Origin: Escherichia phage ECBP1
Direction: 5' to 3' (one strand)
Sequence record: NC_018854.1
DNA length: 64,000 nucleotides
Shown here in pieces: positions 27,416 through 45,500 of the stretch. The notes beneath the pieces are model-generated. The model ran no database searches and was not told where the DNA came from. It was given only the letters and a program-made list of their open reading frames with translations. A program made the translations under genes and the position numbers. Positions within the stretch are counted from its first letter, which is position 1. Each line of letters begins with the position of its first letter.

Positions 27416-28392
27416 AACTTACCAACAAACACGACGTTAGTCTTGCACTAGCTGTATGGCTTGTAACGGATGATTATGATTATGTAGACAATCCTAAGTA
27501 TCTGTCTGTTACTACCTTGCTTAAGCCCATTAAGCAAATAGTCATGAAGCATCGTGTAGATCTTAGTGACCAGTCAATTGATGTTATGGATTTCGTCTCC
27601 ACATCAATGGGTACTGGTTTACATGATTCTATCGAGAAGGCCTGGAAGCTGGGTCATAAGACTGCATTGAAAAAGTTGGGTTATCCTCAACGAGTAATTG
27701 ATGCAGTAGTCATTAACCCAACCAAAGCAGACTTTGATGCTAACCCTGACCTTATCCCAATCTACATTGAACAGCGTGGAACCAGGATAGTTAAGGGTTG
27801 GACTATCGGTGGTAAGTTCGACATCGTAACAGAAGGTCTGCTGCAGGACTTTAAGTCTACCTCAACCTATTCCTGGGTTGCTGGTTCCCGTGATGATGAA
27901 CATAAGATGCAAGGCAGCTTGTATCGTTGGATTCACAACGACATCATTACCGAAGATGTAATCCGTATTAACTACATCTTCACTGACTTCATGAAACACA
28001 TGGCTAATAGCAATCCGAACTATCCTGCTAATCGTATTATGCATAAGGATATTCCGTTGCTATCTGTCGAGAAAACTGAACGTTGGGTAGAAGAGAAGAT
28101 TCACCTCATTGAAAAGTACTGGAATGCACCTGAAGAGGAAATTCCTGAATGTACTGATGAGGAGTTGTGGCGAACAGAGCCACAGTTCAAATACTTCTCT
28201 GATGCTTCTAAGGTAGATGTACCTGGAGCCAGAAGTACCAAAAAATTTGACGATATGGCATCTGCTCGTATCTTCATGGCTGAAAAAGGTGGCAAGGGTG
28301 CTATCAAGGTCGTGGAGGGGCAGGTTAAGCGTTGTCTATACTGCCCTGTCGCGTCCATTTGCAAACAAAGAGAGAGATATTTTCCATCATGA
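27412..28392 (+). CDS. PD-(D/E)XK nuclease with C-terminal Cys cluster (Cas4/RecB-like)
   Basis: GGKFDIVTEGLLQDFK (D...E.K pattern) and C-terminal RCLYCPVASIC. Confidence 0.5.
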   Translation: MKLTNKHDVSLALAVWLVTDDYDYVDNPKYLSVTTLLKPIKQIVMKHRVDLSDQSIDVMDFVSTSMGTGLHDSIEKAWKLGHKTALKKLGYPQRVIDAVVINPTKADFDANPDLIPIYIEQRGTRIVKGWTIGGKFDIVTEGLLQDFKSTSTYSWVAGSRDDEHKMQGSLYRWIHNDIITEDVIRINYIFTDFMKHMANSNPNYPANRIMHKDIPLLSVEKTERWVEEKIHLIEKYWNAPEEEIPECTDEELWRTEPQFKYFSDASKVDVPGARSTKKFDDMASARIFMAEKGGKGAIKVVEGQVKRCLYCPVASICKQRERYFPS

Positions 28393-30542
28393 GTATTGAC
28401 CTGACCGGAGTCACTCACCACCCTGCAATTGAAGAAATTGTAGACGTGCTGTGTAACAAGACACAAAACAACGACAGAGGATTCTTCCGTGTCGAAGTAG
28501 CCTACTTCCTGGCTAAAATGGCATCCTGCATGGGTGCAACCATTGTCACTAAAGACCGTGGTGACTTACCAGTCAACATTTACGCTATGGCATTAGCAAC
28601 GTCTGGCTTCGGTAAAGGTCACTCGGTAAATATTATTGAAGACGGCTTCATGACTGGCTTCCGTAAACGTTTTATGGAAGACACCATGCCCGTCATTGCA
28701 AATGACCGTTTATGGAAGATTGCTAACGAACGTGCTGCTCGACAAGGTACAGACCAGAATGATGAGTTTGATAAAGTCGAAGCAGAGTATAAACGTGCTG
28801 GAGCATATCCGTTTACGTTTGACTCTGGTACTCCACCAGCAGTTAAACAGCTACGACATAAGCTGTTAATGGCTGGGTGTGGTTCAATCAACCTACAGAT
28901 TGATGAAATTGGTTCAAACCTGTTGGCTAACACGGATGTATTAACTCTGTTCCTGGAATTATATGACCAGGGTAAGGTTAAACAGAAGTTAACCAAGAAC
29001 ACTGCTGAAAGTGTTCGTGGTGAAGAACTGGATGGTAAGACTCCAGCTAACCTGTTGCTGTTTGGCACGCCAAGTAAGCTACTAGATGGTGGTCAGACCG
29101 AAGACCAGTTCTATGACTTTCTGGATACAGGGTATGCACGTCGTTGCTTATTTGCCATTGGGCATTTAGATAAACGAGCACATGCAACAATGTCCCCAGA
29201 AGAAATCTACCGTAACCTGATTAAGCAGGATAACGTACAGTCTCTGGGTAAGTGGGCTAATCACTTCCACAGTCTGGCTGATCCAAACTTGTTCGGCTTT
29301 AAGATGGTTGTAGAAGATGCTGTGGGTATTGCTCTGATTACTTACAAGATCGATTGTGAGAAACAAGCAGAAGCTATGGCTGACCACGAAGAAATTCGTA
29401 AGGCTGAAATCTCCCACCGTTACTTTAAAGCTCTTAAGCTGGCTGGAGCACTGGCATTTGTTGACCAAAGTTCATTCATTGAAATGTCTCATCTTAAACA
29501 AGCAATCTTGCTTGTAGAAGAATCCGGGGCAGCATTCCAGGGTATTCTCAATCGTGAGAAAGCCTATGTGAAGCTGGCTAAGTATATCGCTTCTGTAGGT
29601 AAAGAAGTGACTCATGCTGACTTACTGGAGTCGTTGCCGTTCTATAAGAGTGGCAATGCAGCTCGTAATGAGATGATGACTCTTGCTACAGCATGGGGAT
29701 ACAAACAGCACATCATCATTAAGAAAACTTTTAATGAAGGTATTGAGTTCTTCCGTGGAGAGACTCTGAAAGAGACTGACATCAATGAGATGATAGTGGC
29801 CTATAGTGATAGCTTTGCTTATGACTACATTGGTGAACGTGTACCGTTCGACCAGTTGCATGTATTAACCCAAGCTCCCGGTATGCACTGGGTAAACCAT
29901 CACATGAAGAACGGGCATCGTTCCGAAGAGAACGTTATTCCAGGATTTAACATGATTGTTATTGACTGTGATGGTGGAGTACCACTGCATACGTGCCATG
30001 AACTGATGAAGGAATATAAGTTCATGACCTATACCACTAAACGTCATTCTGATGAAGAGAACCGCTTCCGACTGATTATTCCAATGAACTATGAGTTACA
30101 CCTCGACACTGAGGAATACAAAGAGTTTATGAATAACGTTATGTCTTGGCTACCGTTCGAAACGGATGAATCTGCTAACCAGCGAGCCAAGAAATGGATG
30201 TCCTGTGAGACTGGTTCCTATCATTACAATCTTGAAGCAAATCTGTTGGACGTGCGTGACTTTATTCCTCGTACTAGTAAGAACGAGCAGTTCCAGAACC
30301 AGATGAAGGAAGTACAGTCGTTGGATAATCTGGAGCGTTGGTTCGCTAGTCGTATTGCTACCGGTAATCGTAATAATCAAATGATTAAGTACGCACTGGC
30401 ATTGGTTGACAGTGGTTGGGATTTTGCCCAAGTACAGCAAGCCGTCCACTCATTCAATAAGAAACTGGCTAATCCATTACCAGATGATGAATTGAATGCA
30501 ACCGTAATGGTCACCGTGGCTAAACGCTTCGCTGGCAAATAA
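28389..30542 (+). CDS. DNA primase-like replication protein (N4 gp43-like by position)
   Basis: Start set at the ATG overlapping the upstream stop (track 28332); VIDCDGG acidic motif; size and synteny. Confidence 0.45.
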   Translation: MSIDLTGVTHHPAIEEIVDVLCNKTQNNDRGFFRVEVAYFLAKMASCMGATIVTKDRGDLPVNIYAMALATSGFGKGHSVNIIEDGFMTGFRKRFMEDTMPVIANDRLWKIANERAARQGTDQNDEFDKVEAEYKRAGAYPFTFDSGTPPAVKQLRHKLLMAGCGSINLQIDEIGSNLLANTDVLTLFLELYDQGKVKQKLTKNTAESVRGEELDGKTPANLLLFGTPSKLLDGGQTEDQFYDFLDTGYARRCLFAIGHLDKRAHATMSPEEIYRNLIKQDNVQSLGKWANHFHSLADPNLFGFKMVVEDAVGIALITYKIDCEKQAEAMADHEEIRKAEISHRYFKALKLAGALAFVDQSSFIEMSHLKQAILLVEESGAAFQGILNREKAYVKLAKYIASVGKEVTHADLLESLPFYKSGNAARNEMMTLATAWGYKQHIIIKKTFNEGIEFFRGETLKETDINEMIVAYSDSFAYDYIGERVPFDQLHVLTQAPGMHWVNHHMKNGHRSEENVIPGFNMIVIDCDGGVPLHTCHELMKEYKFMTYTTKRHSDEENRFRLIIPMNYELHLDTEEYKEFMNNVMSWLPFETDESANQRAKKWMSCETGSYHYNLEANLLDVRDFIPRTSKNEQFQNQMKEVQSLDNLERWFASRIATGNRNNQMIKYALALVDSGWDFAQVQQAVHSFNKKLANPLPDDELNATVMVTVAKRFAGK

Positions 30543-30598: not shown

Positions 30599-31351
30599 AT
30601 GTCCGAAGTAATTCCCAATGATATGAACACTCAGCTAATCCTGATTGCAGGATTCTCAGCGAGTGGTAAATCAGCATCACTGCGTAACATCAGGAACCAG
30701 GAACGCTGGCTCTATCTGAACACTGAGGCAGGTAAACGTCTACCTTTCCGTAACAAGTTCAATACCTACAACATCGAAGACCCATACCAAATCTGGGAAG
30801 CATTTGATGTTGCATCTCCTGGTGGAGAAATGGCAGATGATGTTGATGGTATCATCATTGACTCAGCAACTTTTATGATGGATATGCTGGAATCCCAGTA
30901 TGTTCTGCCTTCTGCAAACACGCAAAAGGCATGGGGGGATTTTGCACAGTTCTTTAAGATACTGCTGCAACAAAAAGTCGTTAAGTTTGGTAAGCCAGTA
31001 ATCATTACTGCTCATGCTAAAGACGAACTGGATGAAGCTGCTGGTGTGATGAAAACGTTCATCCCAGTGAAAGGCTCTCTGAAGAATAACGGGCTTGAAG
31101 CCTACTTCTCTACAGTGGTTTACGCAGAACGTGTAGACATTAAAGAACTGGAGAAGTATGGAAACAAGATGCTTGAAATTACGGAGGAAGAACGTGATTT
31201 AGGCTATAAACATGTATTCCAGACCCGTCCAACCAAGAAGTCTGTTGGTAAACGACTTCGTTCTCCTATGGGTATGTTCGATAAGTCCGAGACTTACATT
31301 GATAACGATGCCCAGAAACTCTTAGACCACCTGGCTGAATACTACGCTTAA
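30599..31351 (+). CDS. P-loop ATPase (RecA/Sak4-like)
   Basis: Walker A GFSASGKS; Walker B-like IIIDSAT. Confidence 0.5.
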   Translation: MSEVIPNDMNTQLILIAGFSASGKSASLRNIRNQERWLYLNTEAGKRLPFRNKFNTYNIEDPYQIWEAFDVASPGGEMADDVDGIIIDSATFMMDMLESQYVLPSANTQKAWGDFAQFFKILLQQKVVKFGKPVIITAHAKDELDEAAGVMKTFIPVKGSLKNNGLEAYFSTVVYAERVDIKELEKYGNKMLEITEEERDLGYKHVFQTRPTKKSVGKRLRSPMGMFDKSETYIDNDAQKLLDHLAEYYA

Positions 31352-31390: not shown

Positions 31391-32194
31391 ATGTCATTGT
31401 TCAGTAATCTGAAAGAAAAAACCAAAAACGTTGAAGCTGCTAAAGACTCTCTAGGTGGTGGTGGCTTCGGTGCAAAAGAAACCGATATCTACACTGGTAC
31501 TGTAAAAGTAGCTTACGTAGGCAAAGCTGATTCTGGTGCAGACTGGATGCAGTTAATTATTGAAGACCTGAAAAACTCTGATGGCGTGCCTGCTGGCGAG
31601 TTCCGTGCTCAGGTGTACTTCACTTCTGGTAATGCTAAAGGCAACAAGCCGACTTACGAGAAAAATGGTAAAGAGTACTTCCTGCCTGGCTACACTGTCA
31701 TTAACGACATGATGCTGATGGCTACTGGTACTGAACTGCCTGAAGCAGACTTCGAAGAGAAGATTGTTAAAGTCTACGACTACGACGCTAAAGCAGAAGT
31801 TAATAAATCTGTCATGGTTCCAGTTGACCTGGTAGGCCAGACTGTTACCTTCGCTCTGGAAAAAGTTCTGGAAAACAAGCAGGTTAAAGGCGACAACGGT
31901 TATGTAGACTCTGACGAAACTCGTGAAGTAAACGAGATTCAGAAAGTGTTTCACCCGGAACTGCTGGTCACAGTCGTCGAGGCTCAGGAAGCAGAGAAGG
32001 CTGAAAAAGAACTAACCCCAGAACTGGCTGTATTCTATGCAGCATGGCTGGAAAAGAACAAAGGCAAAACTCGTGACAAGACTAAGAGTTCTGCTGGTGG
32101 TAATGGTAAAGGTGGCTTGCCTCCTAAACCAGGTGCAGGTGCTGGCACGGGTACTGCTCCTGCTGGTGGTAAATCACTGTTTGGTAAACGTTAA
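31391..32194 (+). CDS. single-stranded DNA-binding protein (by synteny and size)
   Basis: 267 aa with Gly-rich flexible C-terminal tail; position matches N4 SSB as recalled. Confidence 0.4.
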   Translation: MSLFSNLKEKTKNVEAAKDSLGGGGFGAKETDIYTGTVKVAYVGKADSGADWMQLIIEDLKNSDGVPAGEFRAQVYFTSGNAKGNKPTYEKNGKEYFLPGYTVINDMMLMATGTELPEADFEEKIVKVYDYDAKAEVNKSVMVPVDLVGQTVTFALEKVLENKQVKGDNGYVDSDETREVNEIQKVFHPELLVTVVEAQEAEKAEKELTPELAVFYAAWLEKNKGKTRDKTKSSAGGNGKGGLPPKPGAGAGTGTAPAGGKSLFGKR

Positions 32195-32748
32195 TGAAAA
32201 TCCCAATTGTCGGTGCAGACATTAGTCTCCGCAATTGGGGTTTAGCTCGTGGGATGCTGGACATTGAGTCCGGCGTCTTCGAGCAGGTCGAACTTAAACT
32301 GGTTCAAACTGAAGTTGACCACAACAAACAAGTTCGAACCAACTCCAAAGATATACAAGCCGCTCACGATTTGTTTCTTGGTTGTGAGGAATGGTTACGG
32401 TCTGCTAAAGCAGTATTCGTAGAAGTACCAGTAGGCTCTCAGTCTGCTAACGGTATGAAATCCTATGGCGTATGCGTAGGATTAATAGGTGCATTTCGTG
32501 CATTGGGTTGTCCAATCTTTGAAGTATCCCCAATTGAAAACAAACTTGCACTGGTCGGTGATAAAACTGCATCTAAGGACACGATGATTCGTGCTGCTCA
32601 TGCCATCTATCCTGAAGCCAACTGGCTCACAGATAAGAAGGGCAAACTTCTGAATAAGAATGAGCACTTAGCTGATGCAATCGGTGCAATCCATGCTGGT
32701 GTAAATCTCCCAGCTTTCCAAAACCTCCTTAATTTAATAAAGGCATAA
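32194..32748 (+). CDS. RuvC-like Holliday junction resolvase
   Basis: N-terminal MKIPIVGADISLRNWGLA resembles the RuvC-family start. Confidence 0.4.
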   Translation: MKIPIVGADISLRNWGLARGMLDIESGVFEQVELKLVQTEVDHNKQVRTNSKDIQAAHDLFLGCEEWLRSAKAVFVEVPVGSQSANGMKSYGVCVGLIGAFRALGCPIFEVSPIENKLALVGDKTASKDTMIRAAHAIYPEANWLTDKKGKLLNKNEHLADAIGAIHAGVNLPAFQNLLNLIKA

Positions 32749-32749
32749 C

Positions 32750-33190
32750 ATGCAAATCATTTTGAACCAGTCCGAAGTAGAAGCTGCTGTACAGGCTTAT
32801 GTCGATGATCAAATCAATCTTGCTGGTGACATCAATATTGTCATCAATGCAGACGGTACAGCTTCCGTTGGTATCAACGAAGAGGTTCATGAAGATACTC
32901 CACCCGTGGGAGTAGAGAAGAAAACTCGTCGTTCTCGTAAGAACCCACAGGAAGCTAAACATCGTCCGGTAGAACCAGAGCCGGAAGAAGTAGTTGAAGA
33001 GGTAAAGGTAGAAGAAACCCAGACCTCTACTGGTGGTCAGAACGAGAGTTCTACGCCGGAACCTGAAGAAGAAGCAGTATCTGAACCAGAAGCACAAGAA
33101 GAAGTTGTGCAGGAAGAGGCTAAGGCTGAAGAACCAGCAGAGAAACCTGCTACTAAGCCTTCACTGTTCGCTGGCCTTAAACGTAGTTAA
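32750..33190 (+). CDS. acidic low-complexity protein
   Basis: Ordered N-terminal 45 aa followed by an E/P-rich tail (PEPEEVVEEVKVEE...). Confidence 0.5.
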   Translation: MQIILNQSEVEAAVQAYVDDQINLAGDINIVINADGTASVGINEEVHEDTPPVGVEKKTRRSRKNPQEAKHRPVEPEPEEVVEEVKVEETQTSTGGQNESSTPEPEEEAVSEPEAQEEVVQEEAKAEEPAEKPATKPSLFAGLKRS

Positions 33191-33592: not shown

Positions 33593-34010
33593 TATCGTGA
33601 AGGGTTCTGTTAGAATCCTTTGAGATAGGAACTCCTATCATAACCTTTCTTATCTTAATCTTTGCCGTATGGCACTGACGCTAGGGTTTATGCCCATCCG
33701 TCAGGTAGACTATTTTAAGAATGGGTTATCACAGAAAATGTAAAGCAACATTCGGGTTAATCAATGGCCTCTCCCTATAGGGGCCATTTCTGAATGATAG
33801 GCTATATCCCAAAGGTTAGTATCTTTGGGATAAGGCTTCAGATCCCTTATCAAACTAACCTCTCAATGTTGAGCATTTTAATCACATAAGCCCCTATATG
33901 GGCTGGGTTAAATGTCGGATAGCATAGCTACCTACAGCATCGAATTGTTAGGTCTTACATGCAACATAGGGTATAAAGGGAGGACTCGTCCCCTCCCTCC
34001 TATTATAATG

Positions 34011-34080
34011 GTCGAGGTAGCACGTAGGCATGTGCAGATGGTCGCTACTTCTCTCGCTGGTTCGAATCCAGCCCCCGACC
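34011..34080 (+). other. tRNA-like element (T-arm and acceptor present; no canonical anticodon arm)
   Basis: T-arm gctgg-ttcgaat-ccagc; 6 of 7 acceptor pairs; D-arm-like gcac-gtaggcat-gtgc; preceded by TATAAT. Confidence 0.3.
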
Positions 34081-34371
34081 TATTGACATCCTATCAATGA
34101 GTACATTAAGCTAACGTGCGGAGGTTTACACTATAGCTGGTGTAGGTGGAGAAGACGGCAGGGTAGCTACCTGTGCTTAGTGTACTCTTTGATAGTTTTC
34201 GTAAGCGATTATGCGGTTTTTTAGAAACGAACCAATAACATAAATGCAAACGATGATGTTGTTCTGATGGCAGCCTAATAAGCCAAGCGTCAGTCGGGAG
34301 TGAGTCGTCCTGATTATCAAACGACCATGGAGTGTCCTCGTCCGTGTATTAGAAACGGGGAGTTAATCAAT

Positions 34372-34450
34372 GGTGTGTGATAGCTCAAATAGGTAGAGCG
34401 TGAGGCTACAGTGCTGAATGGTTTGTGGGTTCGATTCCCACCCATGCCTA
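34372..34450 (+). other. tRNA-like element (D-arm and T-arm present; anticodon arm not foldable)
   Basis: D-arm tagctcaaataggtagagc; T-arm gtggg-ttcgatt-cccac; acceptor 6 of 7 with wrong spacing. Confidence 0.3.
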
Positions 34451-34516
34451 CAGTCCAGACGATATCTGAGTGACTATAAAAACAGATGGAGCCAGGTGGA
34501 ATCCCTGGCAATTAAT

Positions 34517-34582
34517 TCCGGTGTAGGTACTAGTGTCGTGCACGGCATAAGTGTTCTGGTTCGAGTCCAGACGCCGGAACCA
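34517..34582 (+). other. tRNA-like minihelix (acceptor + T-arm + encoded CCA; body too short)
   Basis: Acceptor tccggtg / cgccgga; T-arm tctgg-ttcgagt-ccaga; CCA encoded; only 31 nt between acceptor and T-arm. Confidence 0.3.
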
Positions 34583-34584
34583 AT

Positions 34585-34708
34585 TATCAGTTGCACGAGA
34601 TGGCTTGATATGTTCAAGTTTGGACTAAGTGTGACACCGCTAGATTGGAGAGCTGCTGCGGTAAGCTATAGACTCCAACCGGGGGTTCGAATCCCTCACT
34701 GATAACCA
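34585..34708 (+). other. tRNA-like element, about 121 nt with encoded CCA (too long for a canonical tRNA)
   Basis: Perfect 7-bp acceptor tatcagt / actgata; T-arm ggggg-ttcgaat-ccctc; CCA encoded. Confidence 0.3.
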
Positions 34709-35153
34709 ATTCAAAGTAGCATTGCACTAATCCATCCCGGAGTTCAAAGGCCAAACATGGAGCAGTGCTACTTTGAATTAGAAAGATTATGGGGGTAAGT
34801 CGTAACCATACGACGGCGTAAGTACCAGATGAGACTTCTGGACGCCCCTACCAGATTTGGGGTGTAACAGTTAAATCCAGTTGCCGGAAGTGCTATTCTA
34901 GATACGCTGCCAATGTGTGAACGGTAAGGCTGTACAGGACTCGGACTCCCGCCTCAAACCAAAGTCGCCAGGTACTTATGGCAAACGGGTAGTAACGAAC
35001 TAGTCATTCGTCAAACGCCCACCCTATTATGAGTCAGCAAGAACGCCTTCACTTAAACTTAAACAATATAAGCTTAACGCAATAATTATGTAGGGGTATG
35101 TAAGGATTGCGAAGAAGGAGCCAGTTAAAGTCTGGCATGACTCACTCATTTAT

Positions 35154-35227
35154 GCCCACTTAGCTTAGACGGGGAAAGCAACCGACTAATAATCGGAAGG
35201 TCACTGGTTCAAATCCAGTAGTGGGTA
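35154..35227 (+). tRNA. tRNA, canonical 74-nt cloverleaf; anticodon reads AAU (Ile) by standard numbering, unusual A34
   Basis: Acceptor gcccact / agtgggt; D-arm gctt-agacgggga-aagc; anticodon arm accga-ctaataa-tcgga; T-arm actgg-ttcaaat-ccagt. Confidence 0.6.
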
Positions 35228-35454
35228 CTTATTAATAGAGAACATAGTCCTGATTGCATTGCACTCTAAAGACAATGCCGGTGAGACAGTCCGGCACTCT
35301 AATTATTGAAAACATACCTAACGGTGTGAGTATGAGCAGACTATAATGCTCAATTACAGTTAACTATTATCGGACTATCAATCCTGTTTGCTGGTACAAG
35401 CACCGGTGGTAATAGTTAACTGGCCTAGCCTCGTTAGCTGCGTTAAAGCTACTA

Positions 35455-35484
35455 AGTCCCTCTTCGGAGGGACTTTTTTATTTG
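35455..35484 (+). terminator. intrinsic terminator ending the tRNA island
   Basis: agtccctc-ttcg-gagggact followed by ttttttattt. Confidence 0.65.
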
Positions 35485-35531
35485 AGTATTGATGAACGCA
35501 ATCATGCTTAAGTACAAATTCAAACCACTCT

Positions 35532-35924
35532 ATGAGGCTAATAATGGCAACAGTAAGTAAAGAAGCAATCGAAGCTAAGATTAAGAGCGTTTACTATTTT
35601 AATGGTGCTGATGCAGTGAAATCTGCATTCGTTGATCCTTCTGCACTCCCGGCAGATGATTTGGCTAACCTGGGTCTGGTAACCTATTGTGTTATCATTC
35701 TGGAAAACAATTTTAAAGTTGAAGGTGTATCTGCTTGCGTAGACCCAACTATCTATGATGAGCAGTTAGGTCGCCAGTATGCATATGAAAATGCATTCAA
35801 TAAGATTTGGGAATTAGAGGGCTACCTACTACGTCAGGCACTGCATGAGAAGGAAGAGACTGCTAAAGCTTTGGCTTCCTTTGCAGAAAACAATACCTGT
35901 GATGGTGGTGGTTGTACAATTTGA
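35532..35924 (+). CDS. hypothetical 130-aa protein (possibly the N4 gp49 family, by position and size)
   Basis: Last-but-one plus-strand gene before the vRNAP; family assignment from memory only. Confidence 0.45.
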   Translation: MRLIMATVSKEAIEAKIKSVYYFNGADAVKSAFVDPSALPADDLANLGLVTYCVIILENNFKVEGVSACVDPTIYDEQLGRQYAYENAFNKIWELEGYLLRQALHEKEETAKALASFAENNTCDGGGCTI

Positions 35925-36043
35925 TTCAAAGGTGTATGGTAGTTTTTACCGAAAGGTACTGAACTACCCGACAAAGTAGTAAGGCTCATGAAGCCAAAAC
36001 AAAACAAGCCCTCCTAGTGAGGGCTTTCTCATTTGAGGTAGTT

Positions 36044-36535
36044 ATGTCAGAAGAAATTAAAGTCCATTTCACCAACTACATTGGAACCAAGTGTGTAAAT
36101 GGTTTTCCGATGAGCAAAGAAACATACTGCAAACTTCGTGGTTGGGATGTACCAGCAGATGAAGACCCGCTAGAAGAAGGCTACTTAGTCGAGTATCCAG
36201 ACTCTAAGTCCAACCATCCCCAATTCCGTGGCTATATTAGCTGGTCACCTAAAGCTGCATTCGAAGCTGCATACCGTGACGTAGAAAAAGGTTGTACCTT
36301 TGGTCATGCAGTAGAGCTTCTCAAATCAGGCTTTAGAATGACCCGTAAAGGTTGGAACGGAAAAGGAATGTATATCACCTTAGTATCTGGTGAAAATTGG
36401 GCCATGGATAAACATGAAAATACCGTTTGTGAGAAACGGGATTGGCTGGGTATTAAAACCGTTGATAACCAGTTTATGCCATGGGTTCCATCTCAATCAG
36501 ATGTATTAGCAGAAGATTGGGTGTTAGCTCAGTAA
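36044..36535 (+). CDS. DUF2829 (Tad2-like) protein with about 90-aa N-terminal extension
   Basis: C-terminal half GHAVELLKSGFRMTRKGWNGKGMYITLV...FMPWVPSQSDVLAEDWVLAQ matches the recalled DUF2829 pattern; ATG start chosen (track GTG start lies inside a hairpin). Confidence 0.5.
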   Translation: MSEEIKVHFTNYIGTKCVNGFPMSKETYCKLRGWDVPADEDPLEEGYLVEYPDSKSNHPQFRGYISWSPKAAFEAAYRDVEKGCTFGHAVELLKSGFRMTRKGWNGKGMYITLVSGENWAMDKHENTVCEKRDWLGIKTVDNQFMPWVPSQSDVLAEDWVLAQ

Positions 36536-36542
36536 AAATAAA

Positions 36543-36571
36543 AGCCCCTCATTAGAGGGGCTTTTTCATTT
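36543..36571. terminator. bidirectional intrinsic terminator between the converging plus and minus blocks
   Basis: agcccctc-atta-gaggggct with an A-tract upstream and T-tract downstream. Confidence 0.65.
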
Positions 36572-39500
36572 AGTTAGTAAGGTTGAGCCAAGGGTTCAGG
36601 TTGTGGGCACGTAAGCCTTGACCGAAACCGAAGGAGTAACCGAGATTTCCCTGTGCAGCAATACTAAAGATGTTGTCCTGAATAGGCAGACCAACGTTAC
36701 CAAACATGGTAGGGGTTGGAGCCAACATAGCCATAGCAGCATGGACTGGGTTATTACGAATCATGGACACTGCAACTTTTGCAGAACGAATCTTAAAGTT
36801 ATAGAACCACATCAGACCAACACTTTCCATATACCCACGGAATCGACCAGGCAGACGGTCATAGTTAATGAACTCTTCCGTTACACGCCCCAGTGCTTCT
36901 TCACGAGTCTTACCTTTACGCTGAGTCAGTTCATCATAGATGATTGCTTTAGCAATAAAGTCAGAGTACTCAACCGTCTTCTGAATACCCTGGAAGAGAG
37001 CAGTATCCTTAGTGATAAGTGCATAGCGACCTGCGTTACGAACAGACTTAGGCAGCTTATCAGCCAGCTTTTCCATGTATTCGTGGAGTTTACCTTCAGT
37101 AATCAGGATGTCATCACGACCAATACCAGCATCTGCAATTGAAGAGAACTCACCAGCTTCCAACAGAGGCCAGATACTCAAACGTTTATGGCTATCAGAG
37201 ATGGACTGAATCTCAGCCTTGAGTTTACGAATCTGGTTCGGGTTAGTAGCTGCACGTAATTCTGCTTCTGCATCTACCTGACGCAGACGAGATTTCAGGT
37301 ACTGGTTAATCTCAGCAGTCTTCTGTGAAATGCTCTTAGCAATGTTCTTAACCGGTACACCACGAGCAACCATCTGATAAAGGTTAGCCAGGAAGTTAAC
37401 AGCAGGTACGACTACTGACTTAACCACAATCAGAGTCTTAGCTTCTTTAACTAAGTTCTGAACCAGGTTCTCACCACCCATTACATACTTATAGGCACGG
37501 TTGCCAAAGACACCCAGCATAGCTTTCTTGAAGGTATCCAGTGTTTCTGGTGACCAACGGGAATTACCAGACCAGGCATCACCTACAGAAGCTGCACGAT
37601 AACCCAGAGCATCGTTGAGCATGTCACGACGTACCCATAATTCACCCGGACCAAACAAACTTTCTGCTTTCTGACGGGTTTCACTGTTCATCAGCTTAAG
37701 TGCATCGGCAGTTACTGGGTCCAGTTTAGAACCAAGAAGGTTAACGTACTGGGACTTATTAGAAGCAGACATCTTAATGTCGTTCTCATACATGCTATGC
37801 AGGTTTTCAATCAGCATATCGTTGAATCGCTGAGCCTTAGCTTCTTCCACCTGACGACCACGCCATACACCGATTGCACGAGCAAGATGGTTCTCACCTT
37901 CAATGTGCTTCAGCATGTTAGGGTCAATGGATTGCTCATAAGCAACCACATTACCATTGGCATCATATACAGGCAGCAGTGGTTCATTACCACGTTCACC
38001 ACGAGCCAGTGCTTTAGTGATACGGTCTACGGAAGGCTTGTCAGTGATACGACCAGCTACCATGGTTCCCATAGTAAAGCCCGTACCGAGATCTACACCA
38101 CCAGCAGTATTACGAACGTTCTGTAAGATACCTTGCGAGAAAGGAGCCTGTGCCTGTACTGGTGCAAAGTAGTAGCTACGTGCTGGTCCACGATTAGCAG
38201 AGCTACCCTGATAAGTACCAAGACGTACATAGGATTTCTCAATCAAATCAGCAAACTGACTATCTTCAGCAACAATCAGGTTAACACCCTGCTTGTTCTC
38301 GCTAGGGATATACCCTTTGTACTGGTTCAAGGTTGCACGACTATCAGACTTAGCTTTAGCCATTTCATCTTTACGCTGACCAACCAGATAAGAAGTAGCA
38401 AAGTCCATGCCTTCAATTTCTGTCTGAGCCAGTGAAGATAACATCTCACGGTCAGTCTTATTCATTGCTTCCAGTGCATACAAAGTAATCAGTTTATCCA
38501 ACTGAGCTACATCTACAACAGAACGTGTAGTCTTACGTTCACCCAGTAAACGAGAAATTGCAGTAGCATTACGTAGCAGGTTGTTACCAACCGTACCTTT
38601 AATCATGTACTGAGCCAGTTGCTTAGATTTACGATTAATCAGAGGCCAGTTTCGTCCAGCTTGTTTCTGCAAATCTGCTTCCAGTTTATTAACCTCACGG
38701 TCAACAATCTTTTGGTCAGTCAGCAAGTCACGGATTTCATCCAGAGACATAGTGTCACGCAGAACAGCTAAGTCAGTTTTACCCATACCAGTATGCATTG
38801 CTTTCCACTCTTCATTAGTCAGCTTACGGCTGAACTTAGATGCGATAGTGGTAGGCAAGTGTTCACGGAACTGTTGACGGTCAGCCTGTACCTGTGCACG
38901 TACTGCCTTAATCAAATCATATACAGAAGCATTGCTCTTAGTACGTCCGATTATGTCATTAACCAGGTCATGGAAAGGTTGCCATACTTTACCCTGGTTC
39001 ATTGCAGCCATAACACCTTCGGCTACGATTGCACCATTCTTCTCTGTAGCAATAGCAGCTACCAGTTGTGCAGCATGAACAGCACCTTTGACCAATGGAT
39101 TCTTGGTATTAGCTGCAATTTCACGAGCACCTTCTAAAGCACGGGTAGACAATGCATCAATAGAGTCCACCAAATACTGGTTAGCACGGTCGATAGCATT
39201 ACCGGTAGGAGTAGCAACGGAATCATAGAAGGATTCTGCGTTAAGACTGGTCTGCATGATTGTCTGAGCTAATGCATCCATACCTTCCTGTACGTTAGTG
39301 GCTTTAGTATCACCTGCTACACGAGCGTTCAGACTAGCCATTGCAGCAGTACCGATGTTAGTCAGCATTGCATCAACAGTATTGCCGGATTTCTTATCTG
39401 CTTTCATGACAGGAATATCAGCCAGTACCTTACGTACCTCTTCACTTACCATTGCCAGACCAACAAAGGTAGGTAATAAGGAAGAGCGACCTTGAGCATC

Positions 39501-42500
39501 AAACTCAATGTTATTAGCACCCATGATGGTATCGAACTTCTGCTGTGCATAATAACGGTCAGCAGGGTTAGTACTATCCGGGTCAGCCATAAAAGCTTCA
39601 ACAGTCAGGTTCTTAGTAACATGTGTGTAGTATTCCTGTGCACGAGCCATAGCAGCTGGGTTAATAGCAGCCTCAGTAGCCAGTGCAGCAACAATGTTAG
39701 TAAAGAGGCGTTGTTCCTGCATATTCATGGTGAAGCCATGAGCCTGAACATCACGAGTTACTTTAGTTGCATTCACTACTGCATCAGAAAACTTACCTTT
39801 TCGAATTACTTGCTGTACTGGTTCTGAACCGATGTAGTCAGTAATCAGCTTATCAAAAGTCTTACCTAACTCTTCCAGACGAGTATTGTCACCATATGCT
39901 TTGTTATGGAACAGGGTAGTGTCTTTGGCCACAGCAGCAGTAGGAGCTTGTCCACGCATTACTACAGCAGAGTTAAACAGTAGGCCAGAGAACATATCAT
40001 CTGCATTAGCCGGAGCTTTCTTACGTCCAAATACCAGACGCTTGATTGCTTCATATACAGCCTGAACCATAGCTTTAAGTGCAGTGGTTTTCTTCTGCTT
40101 ACCAATCAATTCACGGTTGGTTAAGCCCCATGCCATGTACTCATTCAATGCAGCAGCTTTAGCCATTGCTGGTTCAATGAAGCCATTAGACAAATGACCA
40201 TTAATGGTATTGAGAGCATCAGCATATGCTTCACGTACTGCCGGGGGTTCATTCTTAACATCCAGAGTACGGAACTGGTTCATCAGGTCTTCAATGTTCT
40301 GGACTGCTTCATTAGGAGTGCCTTCATAGTGAGCCAGTACAGATTCAAAAGTAGAAGCATGAACCAATTCATGAACCAGAGTCTCTAAAGAAGGAGTAAC
40401 TAAATAGATGGTCTTATCATCAAAGTTAGTCCAGCCGTATGCATTACCTGCTTCAGCAGCTTCAATATCTTCCGGTGCTGGGCGAGTAATATTCTTCTCA
40501 ATAGCGTAGGCATCCAGTTGAGAAGGCGTACCATAAACAACCTTGTAGTCTTTAGCAGCAAGGGATTTCTGTACTTCTTTCAATACTGCTTGCTGTTCTG
40601 GAGACATCTCTTTAGCCAGCTTAGTGATAGCAGTATTGGACAACAGACGTACACCAGACTTCAGTACACGACCAACCTGTTCCATTGCCGGTACTTCTTT
40701 AGCTGGTTCTGCTTTAGCAGCACGTACTGCATCACGACGCTTATTTAATTCAGCATCAAACAGTTCGTTCAGCTTTGCTACTTGCTGGTCTACAGTCAGA
40801 CCTTCAAGAGAAATTTTACCGTCGTTCACATATGGAGCACCAACAGCAGCCATCTGGTCAACAGTGACTTGTACCTGGTTCATTACCTTGTGGCGAATAT
40901 CTACACCCAGAGCAATGTTACGCAGGTTACGTTCAATCTGTTCAGCACCAACACGTAACAGGTCATCAGTAGCACCTTCACGCTGGTCATATTCCAGAGC
41001 AGACTTAGCGATAGCCTGTTTGGTTTTATCAGACAGTTTGCTGAAGTCTACATTCTTCATGAACTTAGCGTAGGAGTCATAAACATTCTTGATAGGGTTA
41101 CCCTGCCAGGAAGTATATACAGCCTCATTAGCTTTACGACTTGCATCAGTAATGTCATTGATACCAATGTTCATACCATCAAAGATTTTCAGGGTATTCT
41201 TCGGAGCACCTTTCATAGTAGAAAGGGTCTGCATCATCATGCCATCACCAGTACCGATGGTCATAAATGGAATACCTGCTACACCTGCCTGTGAAGGAGC
41301 ATAGATGCTCATTGGCACACGCATACGGTCATCTAAGTTGGTAGCCAATACTTGGTTAGCAACATCAGTATTCTCACTACCAGCAATGTAGAAAGTCTGG
41401 GAACCAGTCTCAATCATTGGAGCCAATGGAGATAATGATTCCTGGATTTCATTCAATTCTTTCTGTGTTAAAAAATCACCCTTCTTCCATGTTGGGTCTT
41501 TTTCTTTTTCTGCCAGTTTCTCCTGAACACGTTGCTGGAACATGTCTTGCAGAACCAGAGATTGAATCTGGGTAGCTTTCTGCAAGTTCTCAGTAGAGTA
41601 CATCAGACCTTCACCCACGGTATTTCGGATACCAGTACGCATTGGTTCAACGAACAGATGGAGCATATTCTCCTGCAAGTTCTTCAGAGCATTACCTGAT
41701 ACAGTAAACTTCTGAGGGTCTAACTTACCAGTCAGAGCACCATCTACCTGCTGAATAGACAACTCACCTTTACGCATAACCGGAACATTACCAGTTAGTG
41801 CTTCCATAGAAGTAAGGAAAGTATCCAGCATAGCCTGAGCATCAGCCTCAGACGCAGCCTCCTTACCAAACATAGCCATAGCTGGGGAAATGCTAGGGTC
41901 AGCAGCACGGGCTTGTAGAACGTCACTGAATCGTTCATAGATGACATCAGTAATTGCACTAACCATTTTGCCTGCAATACCACGAGCACCAGAACCATAG
42001 ATGGTAATAGTCAGTGGGTTTTTAGCGATACCACGTTTCAGGTCCAGAGTACCATCTTCATTCAAATTAAAGTCTTTAATGAACAGGTCCATTAACTTCT
42101 GGAGATGGTTCATCTGGTTCATAACAGGAACGTTGTTACGGTAAGTACTACGTAATTCATTCAGTGCTTGTTGCAGACCATTAGTGGATGCTTCATACAG
42201 GTCAACGCTGTCCTCATGCGAATGATGCTCGTTCATGGTCTTACCAGCTTTACCGAAGAACAAACCACCTTTGGCAGTATTCTTAATCCAGTCTGGGGTG
42301 AACTTACCACCAGTCATTAATACCATTGCGTTGATTGGTCCGTTGGTTACACCATCAGCTTCAACGTACAGTGGGGTATTAAAGTTGGTACGGTCATCAC
42401 TGTTAAGGTAACGGGCATATTCCATCAGAGCCATAAGAGCTACGAATGATTTATCACTACCCAAAGAAGTCTTCAGAATATCCACTGCATCGGCAGGTAA

Positions 42501-45500
42501 GTGTCCAGACTTATCAAATTCAACCATCATATCAACGGCAGGTTTAAGTTTGCCTTCCAGAGCTTTAGTCAGCTCATCTGACATAACTTCACGGGACATT
42601 TTATGAACTTTGATACCCAATGCCTGAGCCAGTCCAAGCTGGAAGTCAGAGAACGTTTGACTGTTTTCATTACTTAAGTCGATGGTAGAGAAGGTTGGAA
42701 GGATTGCTTCACGAACCAGCTTACTGGATTGTGGGTTGTTCTTACCAAGCATCTGCATACGACCTACACGGGTCATGTTGTAGCCGTAGTGAATAGGTGT
42801 ATCCAGTCCATTCTCCTGTTCCTTAATTTGATTGATTACACCAAACAAGGAATCATACGCCATGGACACGGACAGGTTTTTACCTTCCAGAGACTTAGCA
42901 GTATTCACATTCAGCAATTCTGGATTAAGAGCACCAGCACCCATTAACTCCAGAATGTTGTCACAACCCAATGCTTCATAGAAATTAACCATCGGCATAT
43001 GTACACGAAACTCAGTAGCTTGTTCTGCTTTGAGAGCAGCTTTCTGTTCCGGGGTATTCTTAACAGCCGGGTTACGTAACTGAGTTTGAGCCACGGAAGG
43101 AATGTCATCACCCAGATACAATTTCTCTACTGGTTCTAAAAGGACAGTTTCCTCAATAGCAGTAGGGAATTTATTAATGGCATCGTTATCATCCAGCTTC
43201 TCAATGGTATACAGACCAACAGTCTTATTAGATTCTGGGTCAATCTCAGACACATCTAACATGGACTCTTTAACTTCACCCATCTCAATAAGGGAAGACA
43301 GAATCTCTGTAGCCATTGCCATTGGGATACCCTTGGTATACCCCAGAGGTGCATTAGGATTACGATTCAAACCCCAATAGGATTCAATCTTTTGAGCCAG
43401 TGAGTTAGTAGCTTCAACCAGGGTCTGAGCATTCTCGAAGTCAGCCAGAATACCTTCTGGTAGCAGAGATGCTTCCACACCAGTAATAGCAGCTACGTCT
43501 TTCATGTCTTTAACAGCAGCATTCTGTGTAGCAGTCAATCGCCATTGCAGACCAGCAAGTACAGCAGTTTCTAATAGCTGGTCATTGAACTTAAAGGTGT
43601 CACCATCTTTCTCTACGATGTTAAGTAACTTACCACCTACCCAACGGTTAGCCTCAGTACCTTCCGCAAAACGTTTACCAACGTTCTTGTTAGCAAGGAA
43701 CTTAGCCAGACGGTCAGACAGAGTAGTCTTCAGAGTTTCACCAAACTCAAATAAGTCCTGATAACGCTTAATCACATCACTTGTGAGAGCGTTATTTTCT
43801 TTTTGAGTGAATGCTTCAAAGCGAGCAGCAGAAGACAGTGCTTTCTTAACATCAGTCAAAGGAGATTCAGAACCAATGGTACGAGACTTAGGCTCTTCTG
43901 GTAGGGAAAATGCTTTAAGGAACTGGTTTGGTGTCTTATCATTATTATAGACAGGGAACACTGTTTCCATTTCCGATAAAGGTTTACCACCAACGGTATA
44001 GTCTGCTTTCAGTTGAGCCAGTGATACTTCTTCCTTCTCAACGTTATTGGTATTACGTTCAGACGTATCTACACCAATCTGAATAAGTGCATTGTTTGCT
44101 TCAACGAAAGATTGAACAGTATTGAATTGTTCAGCAGTCAGTTTCTGATTATCAAACAGTTGCAGAGATACAAATGGTTGCTCACTACCTTTATAGAAGG
44201 TAGAGCGAATAGCACCAGTATCCAGAGACATATCACGATAACCATCATGCCCAAATACGTCGGACAAGCTGATATGGTCGCCATTAGAACCAACCACAGT
44301 ACCATCAGCAAACAACCAAGGGCTTTCTCTACGGTCACCATTCTTATTAAGAGTTTCCTGTGAAATAGTATTTTCTTTCACATAAGCATCTCTTTCAGAT
44401 TCAGTAGTAGAGACTTCTTCTGCTTTTGGACTAGTCTCTTTAGTAGGAGCAGTCTTATTTTCTACCACTGGTTTATCTTTAGGCTGTACAGTAGTGGTGT
44501 CCTCTTGCACTAGTGCAGGAGTTTCATCAACCTGATTCACTGGTTCATTAGTCTGTTGAGACTGAGTGGCATCAAGACCACCTTGACGGAACTCTTTAAC
44601 TACCTGGGCAGCTGGCTTGTTCAGACGTGAATCCAACGAGGTAACTTTCACATGAGAAACATTAAGCTCCGGGTAAGCCGTAGCAAGTGCGTTAGCAATG
44701 TCAGCTACGGTCTTAGCTTCCAGTGCTACTTGCTGGGCAAACTTAACAGACTTGGTATCGTAAGGATTGACACCGAGGCCAGTACGACTACGTACCCATT
44801 CACGGGAAGGCGAGAGAGCCTGATAATGAACAGACTTATTCTTATCCGCATTCCCCGAAATCAGATGCTCATTCAACGCTCCGACCTTATTCTGCATGTG
44901 CTGGGCGAACTTCATAAAATCGCTCAGATAAGCGGAGGCCAAATCGAAGTTACCAGAGTTATACGCAGAACGAATGCGTTTCGCATGTTGCAACGCAGAG
45001 TACTGTCCTTCATTAGAACGAGACTCATCGGTTTTAATTTGTTTACTAACAATGTCTTGAGGACGTAAGCCTAGTTCTTCTGCTTTAGCGTCGAACTCTC
45101 GTGCACCCTGTAATAAGGCAGCAGCAGATTGCAGGGCAGCACGTTGACGATTCCCCAGTGTAATCTTACCTTCACTTGCATGTTTCAGAACCATGTTCAC
45201 TGAATCTGCATCCAGCACTTCTGGAGATACATCAGCAGCCATAGCAATGTTGTTTGCTTGGGCTTGATTAGCTTCTTCAGTAGCTTTCAGCTTACCCGCT
45301 TCAGCCTGTTCCTGAATCATGGAATGGATGGCACGAAATGCACGGAGTACTTTAGGGGTATTCTGTACGTTAGCCATCAGGCCGGAGAATTGGTCTACGA
45401 TTGCAGCAGCAGGGGAATCTTGTTCCAGATTAGCCAAAGCACCCGGGTCACGGTTAATGAAGCTATCCATAGACATGATATTGTCATACATCTGGATTGC

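Follow-up and report, generated by a model that had tools for sequence, protein, structure and literature searches.

An unnamed phage module joined to a Tad2-family sponge domain in Escherichia phage ECBP1, with a possible second anti-signalling activity

What does an unnamed module of 83 residues contribute to a phage protein whose remaining residues form a Tad2-like domain? This question is raised by the gene at positions 36044-36535 of Escherichia phage ECBP1 (NC_018854.1). The whole stretch of DNA that was analysed, 64,000 nucleotides (nt) long, is called the window here. An earlier note on the window, made from the letters alone, had read the gene as a candidate anti-Thoeris sponge of the DUF2829 (Tad2-like) family with an extra N-terminal domain. 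We found that residues 84-163 are well supported, by sequence and by structure prediction, as a bona fide Tad2-family sponge domain, and that residues 1-83, called the N-module below, are an independent, mobile, and unnamed module. We consider it probable that the whole is an anti-signalling protein in which a Tad2 sponge is combined with an autonomous N-module. The features of the gene and its immediate flanks are as follows.

36044-36535, plus strand: gene for the two-module protein, 163 amino acids (aa), with the ATG at 36044 and the stop codon at 36533-36535; ortholog of N4 gp49 and Bp4 orf32 (YP_009031998.1).
36035-36039, plus strand: Shine-Dalgarno sequence GAGGT, 4 nt 5' of the ATG, read in the sequence.
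36044-36292, plus strand: N-module, residues 1-83, with the motifs GTK..PM, RGW.VP.DE, EGYLVEY, and GYISWSPK..FE.AY; an unnamed phage domain.
36293-36532, plus strand: Tad2-like (DUF2829) domain, residues 84-163, from PF11195, phmmer against the PDB, and Foldseek.
36353-36358, plus strand: codons of W104-N105, which by residue mapping correspond to W25/N26 of SPO1 Tad2 and W21/N22 of HgmTad2, the core ligand contacts.
36482-36502, plus strand: codons of W147..S150..S152-D153, which correspond to SPO1 W73, S76, T78, and D79, the second half of the gcADPR pocket.
36006-36026, unstranded: hairpin between the Acb4 homolog and the two-module gene, -14.7 kcal/mol, z -2.45; terminator-like, with a weak U tract.
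36540-36565, unstranded: strong bidirectional intrinsic terminator with an 11-bp stem, -19.6 kcal/mol, z -5.2 and -7.1, and U tracts on both strands.

The open reading frame (ORF) given in the earlier note was confirmed, and it is a real 163-aa gene of a Bp4/PD38-like N4-type coliphage. A longer ORF from a GTG at 36017 was rejected in favour of the start at 36044 because the GTG lies inside the upstream hairpin and because the homologs begin with MSEEIK. Over positions 35400-36700 the window was 99.3-99.4% identical at the nucleotide level to Escherichia phages PD38 and Bp4 (Gamaleyavirus, Schitoviridae). The protein shared 144 of 159 residues (91%) with N4 gp49 and matched PHROG 872 over its full length (E 5e-67). 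The ratios of nonsynonymous to synonymous substitution (dN/dS) against N4, 24-32N, and Moonfish were 0.07-0.24 for both halves of the gene, and both halves are under purifying selection. The RefSeq label of Bp4 orf32 is "DUF2829 domain-containing protein", and some related records are labelled "Thoeris anti-defense 2-like protein" or "anti-CRISPR protein". The Tad2 identity of the gene is thus not new, since relatives are annotated in this way and the type of locus has been published.

The assignment of the C-terminal half to the DUF2829/Tad2 family, for which the earlier note had quoted residues 87-163, was upheld by the profile search. PF11195 ("Tad2-like") matched residues 85-161 with E 9.4e-24 and 84.2 bits (cut-off 25), over profile positions 2-72 of 73. 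A phmmer search of the PDB found ModTad2 (9EIB), Tad2 (8V3E), and SPO1 Gp34.65 (8SME and 8WJE) with E values from 7e-17 to 6e-15; the matches to AcrIIA7/HgmTad2 and SptTad2 were weaker and fragmented. A single-chain AlphaFold2 model was built from an alignment of 62 homologs and had a mean pLDDT of 89.3. Its elements in this half were helix 86-94, strands 99-101 and 110-114, helix 123-126, strands 134-138 and 144-146, helix 151-155, and strand 159-161. This predicted order of helix, strand, strand, helix, strand, strand, helix, and strand is the published topology of SPO1 Tad2. Foldseek comparison of the model with the PDB, a check along the lines that the earlier note had proposed, gave 24 significant matches, and all 24 were Tad2 structures (target-normalised TM 0.59-0.87; 40-45% identity).

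The ligand-binding residues were compared with those of SPO1 Tad2, which contacts 1''-3' gcADPR through W25, N26, I63, T65, D67, H71, W73, S76, T78, and D79 (bioRxiv 2023.05.01.538930; 2023.11.15.567273). Residue mapping gave W104, N105, I137, T139, D141, M145, W147, S150, S152, and D153 as the equivalents. Eight of the ten are identical, one is conservatively replaced (T78 to S152), and one is changed (H71 to M145); W104, N105, T139, W147, and D153 were invariant in the 62-homolog alignment. A segment of about 19 residues (115-133) joins strands 2 and 3 in the predicted model; in SPO1 Tad2 it has 24. In HgmTad2 and SptTad2, an insertion of 35-41 residues after β2 builds the pocket for cGG or cGAMP. 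The ECBP1 protein lacks an insertion of this length and thus stands outside that cyclic-dinucleotide-binding subgroup; a second, cyclic-dinucleotide pocket is not expected because the segment is so short.

The N-terminal part, which the earlier note had set apart as a domain that it did not recognise, proved to be separate over the first 83 or so residues: no match to it was found in Pfam, NCBIfam, PADLOC, or the PDB sequences. A Pfam scan of 64 members of the N-module family likewise gave no match, and a profile of 64 sequences found no PDB chain even at E<=10. The PHROG matches of the module were to families of "unknown function" only (PHROG 872 / 9467, N-terminal part). The family itself is very large. 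The profile matched 2,881 clusters (defined at 50% identity) at E<=1e-3 and 1,370 at E<=1e-10 in a search of 1.84 billion cluster representatives. Using tblastn, the module was found in 121 phage genomes with hosts that include Escherichia, Vibrio, Klebsiella, Pseudomonas, Rhizobium, Acinetobacter, and Clostridium.

Among the 150 best-scoring representatives, a choice that inflates conservation, K16, G46, L48, V49, E50, Y64, W67, S68, and P69 were invariant, and P22, M23, Y28, R32, G33, W34, P37, E40, Y47, Y51, N57, S66, K70, F73, and Y77 were conserved in at least 90%. The conserved polar and aromatic residues were the same regardless of the fusion partner. By hand count the module is net acidic, and it contains a conserved acidic loop, PADE[ND]P. 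The predicted models had three to four strands and two helices, with strand 1 present in the full-length model only.

The N-module was also aligned by hhalign with residues 1-70 of gp68 of Pectobacterium phage CB1 (probability 97.8%, E 7e-13), and the motifs K..V.A.PM, EGYLV.Y, and Y.SWSP..F are common to both. CB1 gp68 is "RyR Tad", a gcADPR sponge described in a June 2026 preprint, in whose crystal the N-domain forms a β1-swapped dimer with a five-stranded sheet (bioRxiv 10.64898/2026.06.04.730250). The N-module that N4 gp49-type proteins share with RyR Tad thus belongs to one very large family tied to five sponge families, a link that appears to be unreported in the searchable literature.

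Fusion partners were counted with Pfam on the 150 best of the 2,881 N-module representatives. Local hidden Markov models for the partner domains were less sensitive than Pfam (24+ against 41 for Sequestin), and the Pfam counts were preferred.

Tad2-like (PF11195): 43 of 150 N-module proteins.
crAss001_48, Sequestin (PF21825): 41 of 150.
Phage_gp49_66, Acb4 (PF13876): 13 of 150.
Acb2/Tad1 hairpin (PF24729): 6 of 150, and at least one weaker match (P0311) below the cut-off.
Others: a single match to each of WDGH, HNH_3, and AP2, the last two on the same protein; two proteins of the 150.

PF13876 is identified in the literature as the Acb4 sponge family, and PF21825 is the Sequestin sponge family (bioRxiv 2025.07.12.664507). 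The N-module is joined to five distinct sponge families, namely Tad2, Sequestin, Acb4, the Acb2/Tad1 hairpin, and RyR Tad, because four were found with Pfam and the N-domain of gp68 is homologous. The domains occurred in the following orders.

N-module, Tad2: the ECBP1 gene.
Tad2, N-module: P0245 and P0288.
Sequestin, N-module: P0225.
Acb4, N-module: P0331.
Acb4, N-module, Sequestin: P0322.
N-module, Sequestin, Acb4: P0296 and P0238.
N-module, Acb2/Tad1, Sequestin: P0319.
N-module, Acb4, Sequestin: Pseudomonas phage inbricus.
N-module, Sequestin: Klebsiella phage pKP-BM327-1.1.

The module was also encoded as stand-alone genes of about 75 aa. In the N4-like Erwinia phage phiEaP8, gp22 (L005:2504-2740) is a free N-module of 78 aa that occupies the same slot as the ECBP1 gene, adjoining the virion RNA polymerase (vRNAP) gene. 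One further stand-alone gene is followed 3 bp downstream by a separate Acb4 gene, and two others have no recognisable sponge nearby.

Some fusion proteins had further features. The triple fusion of Pseudomonas phage inbricus (MG018928; L006:2492-3190) carries the N-module, Acb4, and Sequestin on one 232-aa protein, and its gene is close to the terminase gene, not the vRNAP gene. In the metagenomic protein P0260 (354 aa), which joins the N-module to Tad2, the Tad2 domain is split by a segment resembling a homing endonuclease (HNH_3 and AP2); either an endonuclease may have inserted into a sponge gene, or the gene call may be a read-through. About one third of the 150 best N-module proteins had partner regions of 45-160 aa without a Pfam match, and one partner was a WDGH domain (PF25311); the representatives noted were P0210, P0256, P0257, P0291, P0297, P0305, and P0302. 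Some of the Pfam-less regions resemble frameshifted Tad2, and others are distinct; the distinct ones could be further anti-signalling modules.

How the protein might work can be proposed for each module. By analogy with the crystal structures of SPO1, Hgm, and Mod Tad2, residues 84-163 would form a homotetramer, and the pockets between non-dimeric protomers would enclose a TIR-made alarm molecule derived from ADP-ribose, held by W104, N105, I137, T139, D141, W147, S150, S152, and D153. We strongly infer that the ligand would be such a TIR-derived ADP-ribose signal. The likeliest candidate, though not a certain one, is 1''-3'/1''-2' gcADPR of type I Thoeris; His-ADPR of type II is possible. With the signal sequestered, the ThsA effector would not be activated and infection would proceed. 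The N-module probably dimerises by exchange of its first strand, a swap seen for its homolog in the crystal of RyR Tad. The likeliest of the roles considered for the module is to bind or break down a different immune signal, rather than to serve as a mere scaffold of the sponge. The gene would be expressed from the rightward (early or middle) block beside the Acb4 homolog, and the pair may act as a compact countermeasure against several signals.

For the N-module, we tentatively favour an autonomous second anti-signalling activity. The module behaves genetically as sponges do, being small, restricted to phages, shuffled in any order, and often alone, and its set of invariant polar and aromatic residues is kept independent of the partner; both features argue for an activity of its own. 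Sponges are recognised as short, homo-oligomeric phage proteins in which protomer interfaces form a conserved pocket of positive charge and which are frequently fused to known sponges (bioRxiv 2025.07.12.664507); the N-module is short (about 75 aa), phage-borne, fused to five sponge partners, dimeric in one homolog, and net acidic. It is possible, although we put it at less than an even chance, that the N-module is the founding example of a new phage anti-signalling family, either a sponge or a small enzyme. Its signal would lie outside the range of its partners, e.g. His-ADPR, N7-cADPR, cyclic tri- or oligo-adenylates, or cCMP/cUMP.

Several points weigh against the combined reading of a Tad2 sponge with an autonomous N-module. 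The ligand specificity of Tad2 proteins varies, and the water-coordinating H71 of SPO1 Tad2 is M145 in the ECBP1 protein. Our literature search found no study of N4 gp49 function and no published test of this protein or its orthologs. The conservation figures for the N-module are raised by the use of the best-scoring representatives. The overall acidity of the module is unlike the positively charged pockets of known sponges (bioRxiv 2025.07.12.664507). The one experiment on a homolog of the N-module was negative: the N-terminal fragment of gp68 (gp68_N, residues 1-86) failed to inhibit type I Thoeris. Dimerisation of gp68 involves both of its domains, which fits a scaffold (bioRxiv 10.64898/2026.06.04.730250). 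The N-module of gp68 is atypical, without equivalents of R32, G33, W34, P37, E40, E50, N57, G63, K70, and Y77. Because about ten conserved residues are lost and only an assay against type I Thoeris was reported, the negative result for gp68_N is weak evidence on the canonical family.

The main rival is that the N-module is an assembly device without a ligand of its own, a strand-swapped dimeriser that cross-links or stabilises sponge oligomers and so provides avidity or lattices; we regard this as somewhat less likely than an activity of its own. The swapped dimer in the RyR Tad crystal and the inactivity of the isolated fragment agree with it, as do the N-terminal position of the module in most representatives and the loss of the first strand in an AlphaFold2 model of the N-module alone, as expected of a swapped element. 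Tad2, Acb4, and Sequestin, however, oligomerise unaided, and the module is often a free gene of about 75 aa, at times without a sponge gene nearby. Moreover, K16, R32, E40, E50, N57, S66, and S68 are near-invariant whatever the partner, which would be unusual for a generic dimeriser; the gp68 fragment was assayed without most of the near-invariant polar residues; and the domain order is shuffled as freely as in sponge-sponge fusions. A second alternative, which we consider improbable, is that the N-module binds a protein: it might block an effector, a TIR enzyme, or a CD-NTase, or it might hide the sponge from surveillance by the host. Inhibitors of Thoeris and CBASS that act by binding immune proteins are known, and an acidic module with the conserved loop PADE[ND]P would suit a basic protein surface, but with the module present in phages that infect Clostridium, Vibrio, Pseudomonas, Rhizobium, and E. 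coli, a single conserved host target is hard to picture. Furthermore, N4 carries the module on gp49 and yet is restricted by Panoptes through Acb4, which argues against a shield from sponge surveillance and likewise makes an anti-Panoptes role of the module unlikely.

In the Tad2 domain, the alternatives concern the ligand. The system that ModTad2 inhibits is type II Thoeris, through binding of His-ADPR, and not type I; the domain of the ECBP1 protein is about equally near to ModTad2 and SPO1 Tad2. The domain might be tuned to His-ADPR or another nucleotide signal instead of gcADPR, which we consider unlikely. The best PDB sequence match is indeed ModTad2, solved with His-ADPR, and some Tad2 homologs also bind cGG or cGAMP. 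On the other hand, apart from H71, every hydrophobic or polar residue with which SPO1 Tad2 contacts gcADPR is kept, most Tad2 homologs assayed inhibit type I Thoeris, and the β2-β3 insertion of about 19 residues falls short of the 35-41 residues that form the cyclic-dinucleotide pocket of HgmTad2 and SptTad2. We give very little credence to an anti-CRISPR function of the AcrIIA7 type, as some GenBank labels of relatives would have it. AcrIIA7 does belong to DUF2829 and is among the PDB matches, but AcrIIA7 (HgmTad2) has itself been shown to be a gcADPR/cGG sponge, a Cas9 mechanism was never demonstrated, and the similarity to it (E 3e-10, in two fragments) is below that to the Thoeris sponges. 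To our knowledge, E. coli hosts have no type II-A Cas9. The anti-CRISPR reading was rejected.

Known families were also considered as the identity of the N-module and rejected. A diverged Tad2, Acb4, or Sequestin is contradicted by hhalign, in which each of the three comparisons (with the Tad2 domain, with the Acb4 homolog, and with a Sequestin domain) gave a probability below 1%. Lockin forms hexamers and is missing from model phages, Acb5 forms tetramers and is enriched in phages of Streptomyces, and TadIV-1 is helical and comes from T4-like phages; each differs from the module in fold or distribution.

The surroundings of the gene contain the following features.

28332-30542: primase (PriCT_1).
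30599-31351: AAA_24 protein.
31391-32194: ortholog of the single-stranded DNA-binding protein (SSB).
32194-32748, plus strand: N4 gp46-like protein, 184 aa.
32750-33190, plus strand: acidic ORF, 146 aa (Bp4 orf35).
About 34010-35228: tRNA region.
35544-35924, plus strand (ORF callable from 35532): Acb4 homolog, ortholog of N4 gp48; PF13876, E 1.7e-25.
36570-47300, minus strand: vRNAP gene, 3,576 aa; right boundary of the accessory slot.

In N4-like phages, the interval from the primase to the vRNAP gene, interspersed with SSB and RecA-like genes, is an "anti-signalling hotspot" that contains Tad2, Tad3, Acb4, Sequestin, and RuvC-like Bes1 genes (bioRxiv 2026.06.04.730250). The two-module gene lies between the primase, AAA_24, and SSB genes and the vRNAP gene, and gene content is variable among relatives, which places it in this hotspot and agrees with the accessory position given in the earlier note. 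The content around the gene varies in 24-32N, Moonfish, and phiEaP8, and the slot is confirmed as accessory by small ORFs that are inserted to the left or right of the gene in some relatives and not in others. The earlier note had described the slot as terminator-flanked, and a hairpin is present on each side, strong downstream and moderate upstream, where the U tract is weak. Terminators are annotated in PhAPEC5 and PhAPEC7 at the position equivalent to the upstream hairpin, and the downstream terminator lies between the rightward block and the vRNAP/late block, which is read leftward and converges with it. The claim that the slot lies between a tRNA island and the late block held on its right side, where the vRNAP/late block is next; on the left, the Acb4 homolog intervenes, and only one of the three tRNA calls passes Rfam.

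The Acb4 homolog is 47% identical to N4 gp48, which is Acb4N4 and has been shown to trigger the Panoptes counter-sponge system. On sequence grounds, the Acb4 homolog and the two-module gene would be a pair of anti-CBASS and anti-Thoeris genes. The locus is mosaic: the identity to the N4 ortholog is 91% for the two-module protein (gp49) but just 47% for the adjoining Acb4 homolog (gp48). This contrast points to separate exchange of the two neighbours or to constraints that differ greatly between them.

In the tRNA region, ARAGORN called Ala-CGC at 34010-34081, Cys-ACA at 34373-34451, and Ile-AAU at 35154-35228 (plus strand). The Rfam gathering score was reached by the call at 35154-35228 only. 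The Cys and Ile anticodons start with A34, which is unusual in bacteria; the calls at 34010-34081 and 34373-34451 may be degenerate or non-canonical.

Further upstream, the protein encoded at 32194-32748 was 35% identical to CB1 gp74 in a local alignment of 140 aa and had no Pfam or PDB sequence match. Its N-terminal motif IVGADIS..NWG and its position suggest the RuvC-like Bes1 class, which was reported in 2026 to blunt CBASS and Thoeris. The ORF at 32750-33190 is very acidic and of low complexity, with repeats rich in E, P, and V, and had no Pfam match.

The Tad2 assignment alone adds little, since annotations of DUF2829/Tad2 genes already exist for N4-like phages and the hotspot was described in 2026. 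The added value is the second module, which is very large as a family, conserved, nameless, fused to sponges in any order, and also found alone. Such a pattern of fusions among sponges led to the discovery of Sequestin (bioRxiv 2025.07.12.664507); the published fusion screen that revealed Sequestin was blind to the N-module because it queried Pfam families only. If the N-module has its own ligand, it would bring the number of sponge-type families to six or seven, and N4 gp49 would, like its orthologs, inhibit two signals; the model phage N4 would offer a ready genetic system. If the family is indeed a new one, the partner regions of P0210, P0256, P0257, P0291, P0297, and P0305 and the WDGH domain would mark further anti-defence modules. 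Even as a scaffold only, the N-module would account for the way in which phages build multi-sponge particles. The phiEaP8 protein gp22 is a convenient natural test case of an N-module alone.

Comparison with known systems places the protein as follows. Like SPO1 Tad2 (Gp34.65; 8SME, 8SMF, and 8SMG), it has in its C-terminal 80 residues, which are 40-45% identical, the same predicted topology of a helix and five strands, the ligand motifs W-N-G and W..S.(T/S)D, and a short β2-β3 loop. Unlike SPO1 Tad2, it is 163 aa long instead of about 89 and carries the unrelated 83-residue module before helix α1, which is the tetramer core in Tad2; H71 is replaced by M, and its phage is a podovirus with a Gram-negative host. 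ModTad2, from a Myroides odoratus prophage (8V3E and 9EIB), is the best PDB sequence match (E 7e-17) and has the same fold, but it is a single-domain protein with five extra residues after strand 2 and takes His-ADPR, not the type I signal. AcrIIA7/HgmTad2 (8KBI-8KBM) shares the DUF2829 core and the gcADPR contacts of the W21/N22 type; its 41-residue insertion, against about 19 residues here, forms the cGG/cGAMP pocket, and the match to it is in two fragments.

The two-module arrangement has its closest counterpart in RyR Tad (Pectobacterium phage CB1 gp68), in which an N-module is likewise followed by a gcADPR-type sponge and which shares the N4-like hotspot. The sponge domain of RyR Tad, however, has an all-helical fold like RyR Repeat12 (PF02026) and not the Tad2 fold, and its N-module is degenerate, with about ten family-conserved residues lost. 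The sponge-sponge fusions (Acb4-Tad2 of Pasteurella phage Pm86, Tad2-Sequestin, and Sequestin-Acb4; bioRxiv 2025.07.12.664507) resemble the ECBP1 protein in joining Tad2 to a small module that also occurs alone and in shuffled order. They differ from it in that both of their modules are proven sponges, whereas the N-module is without a Pfam entry.

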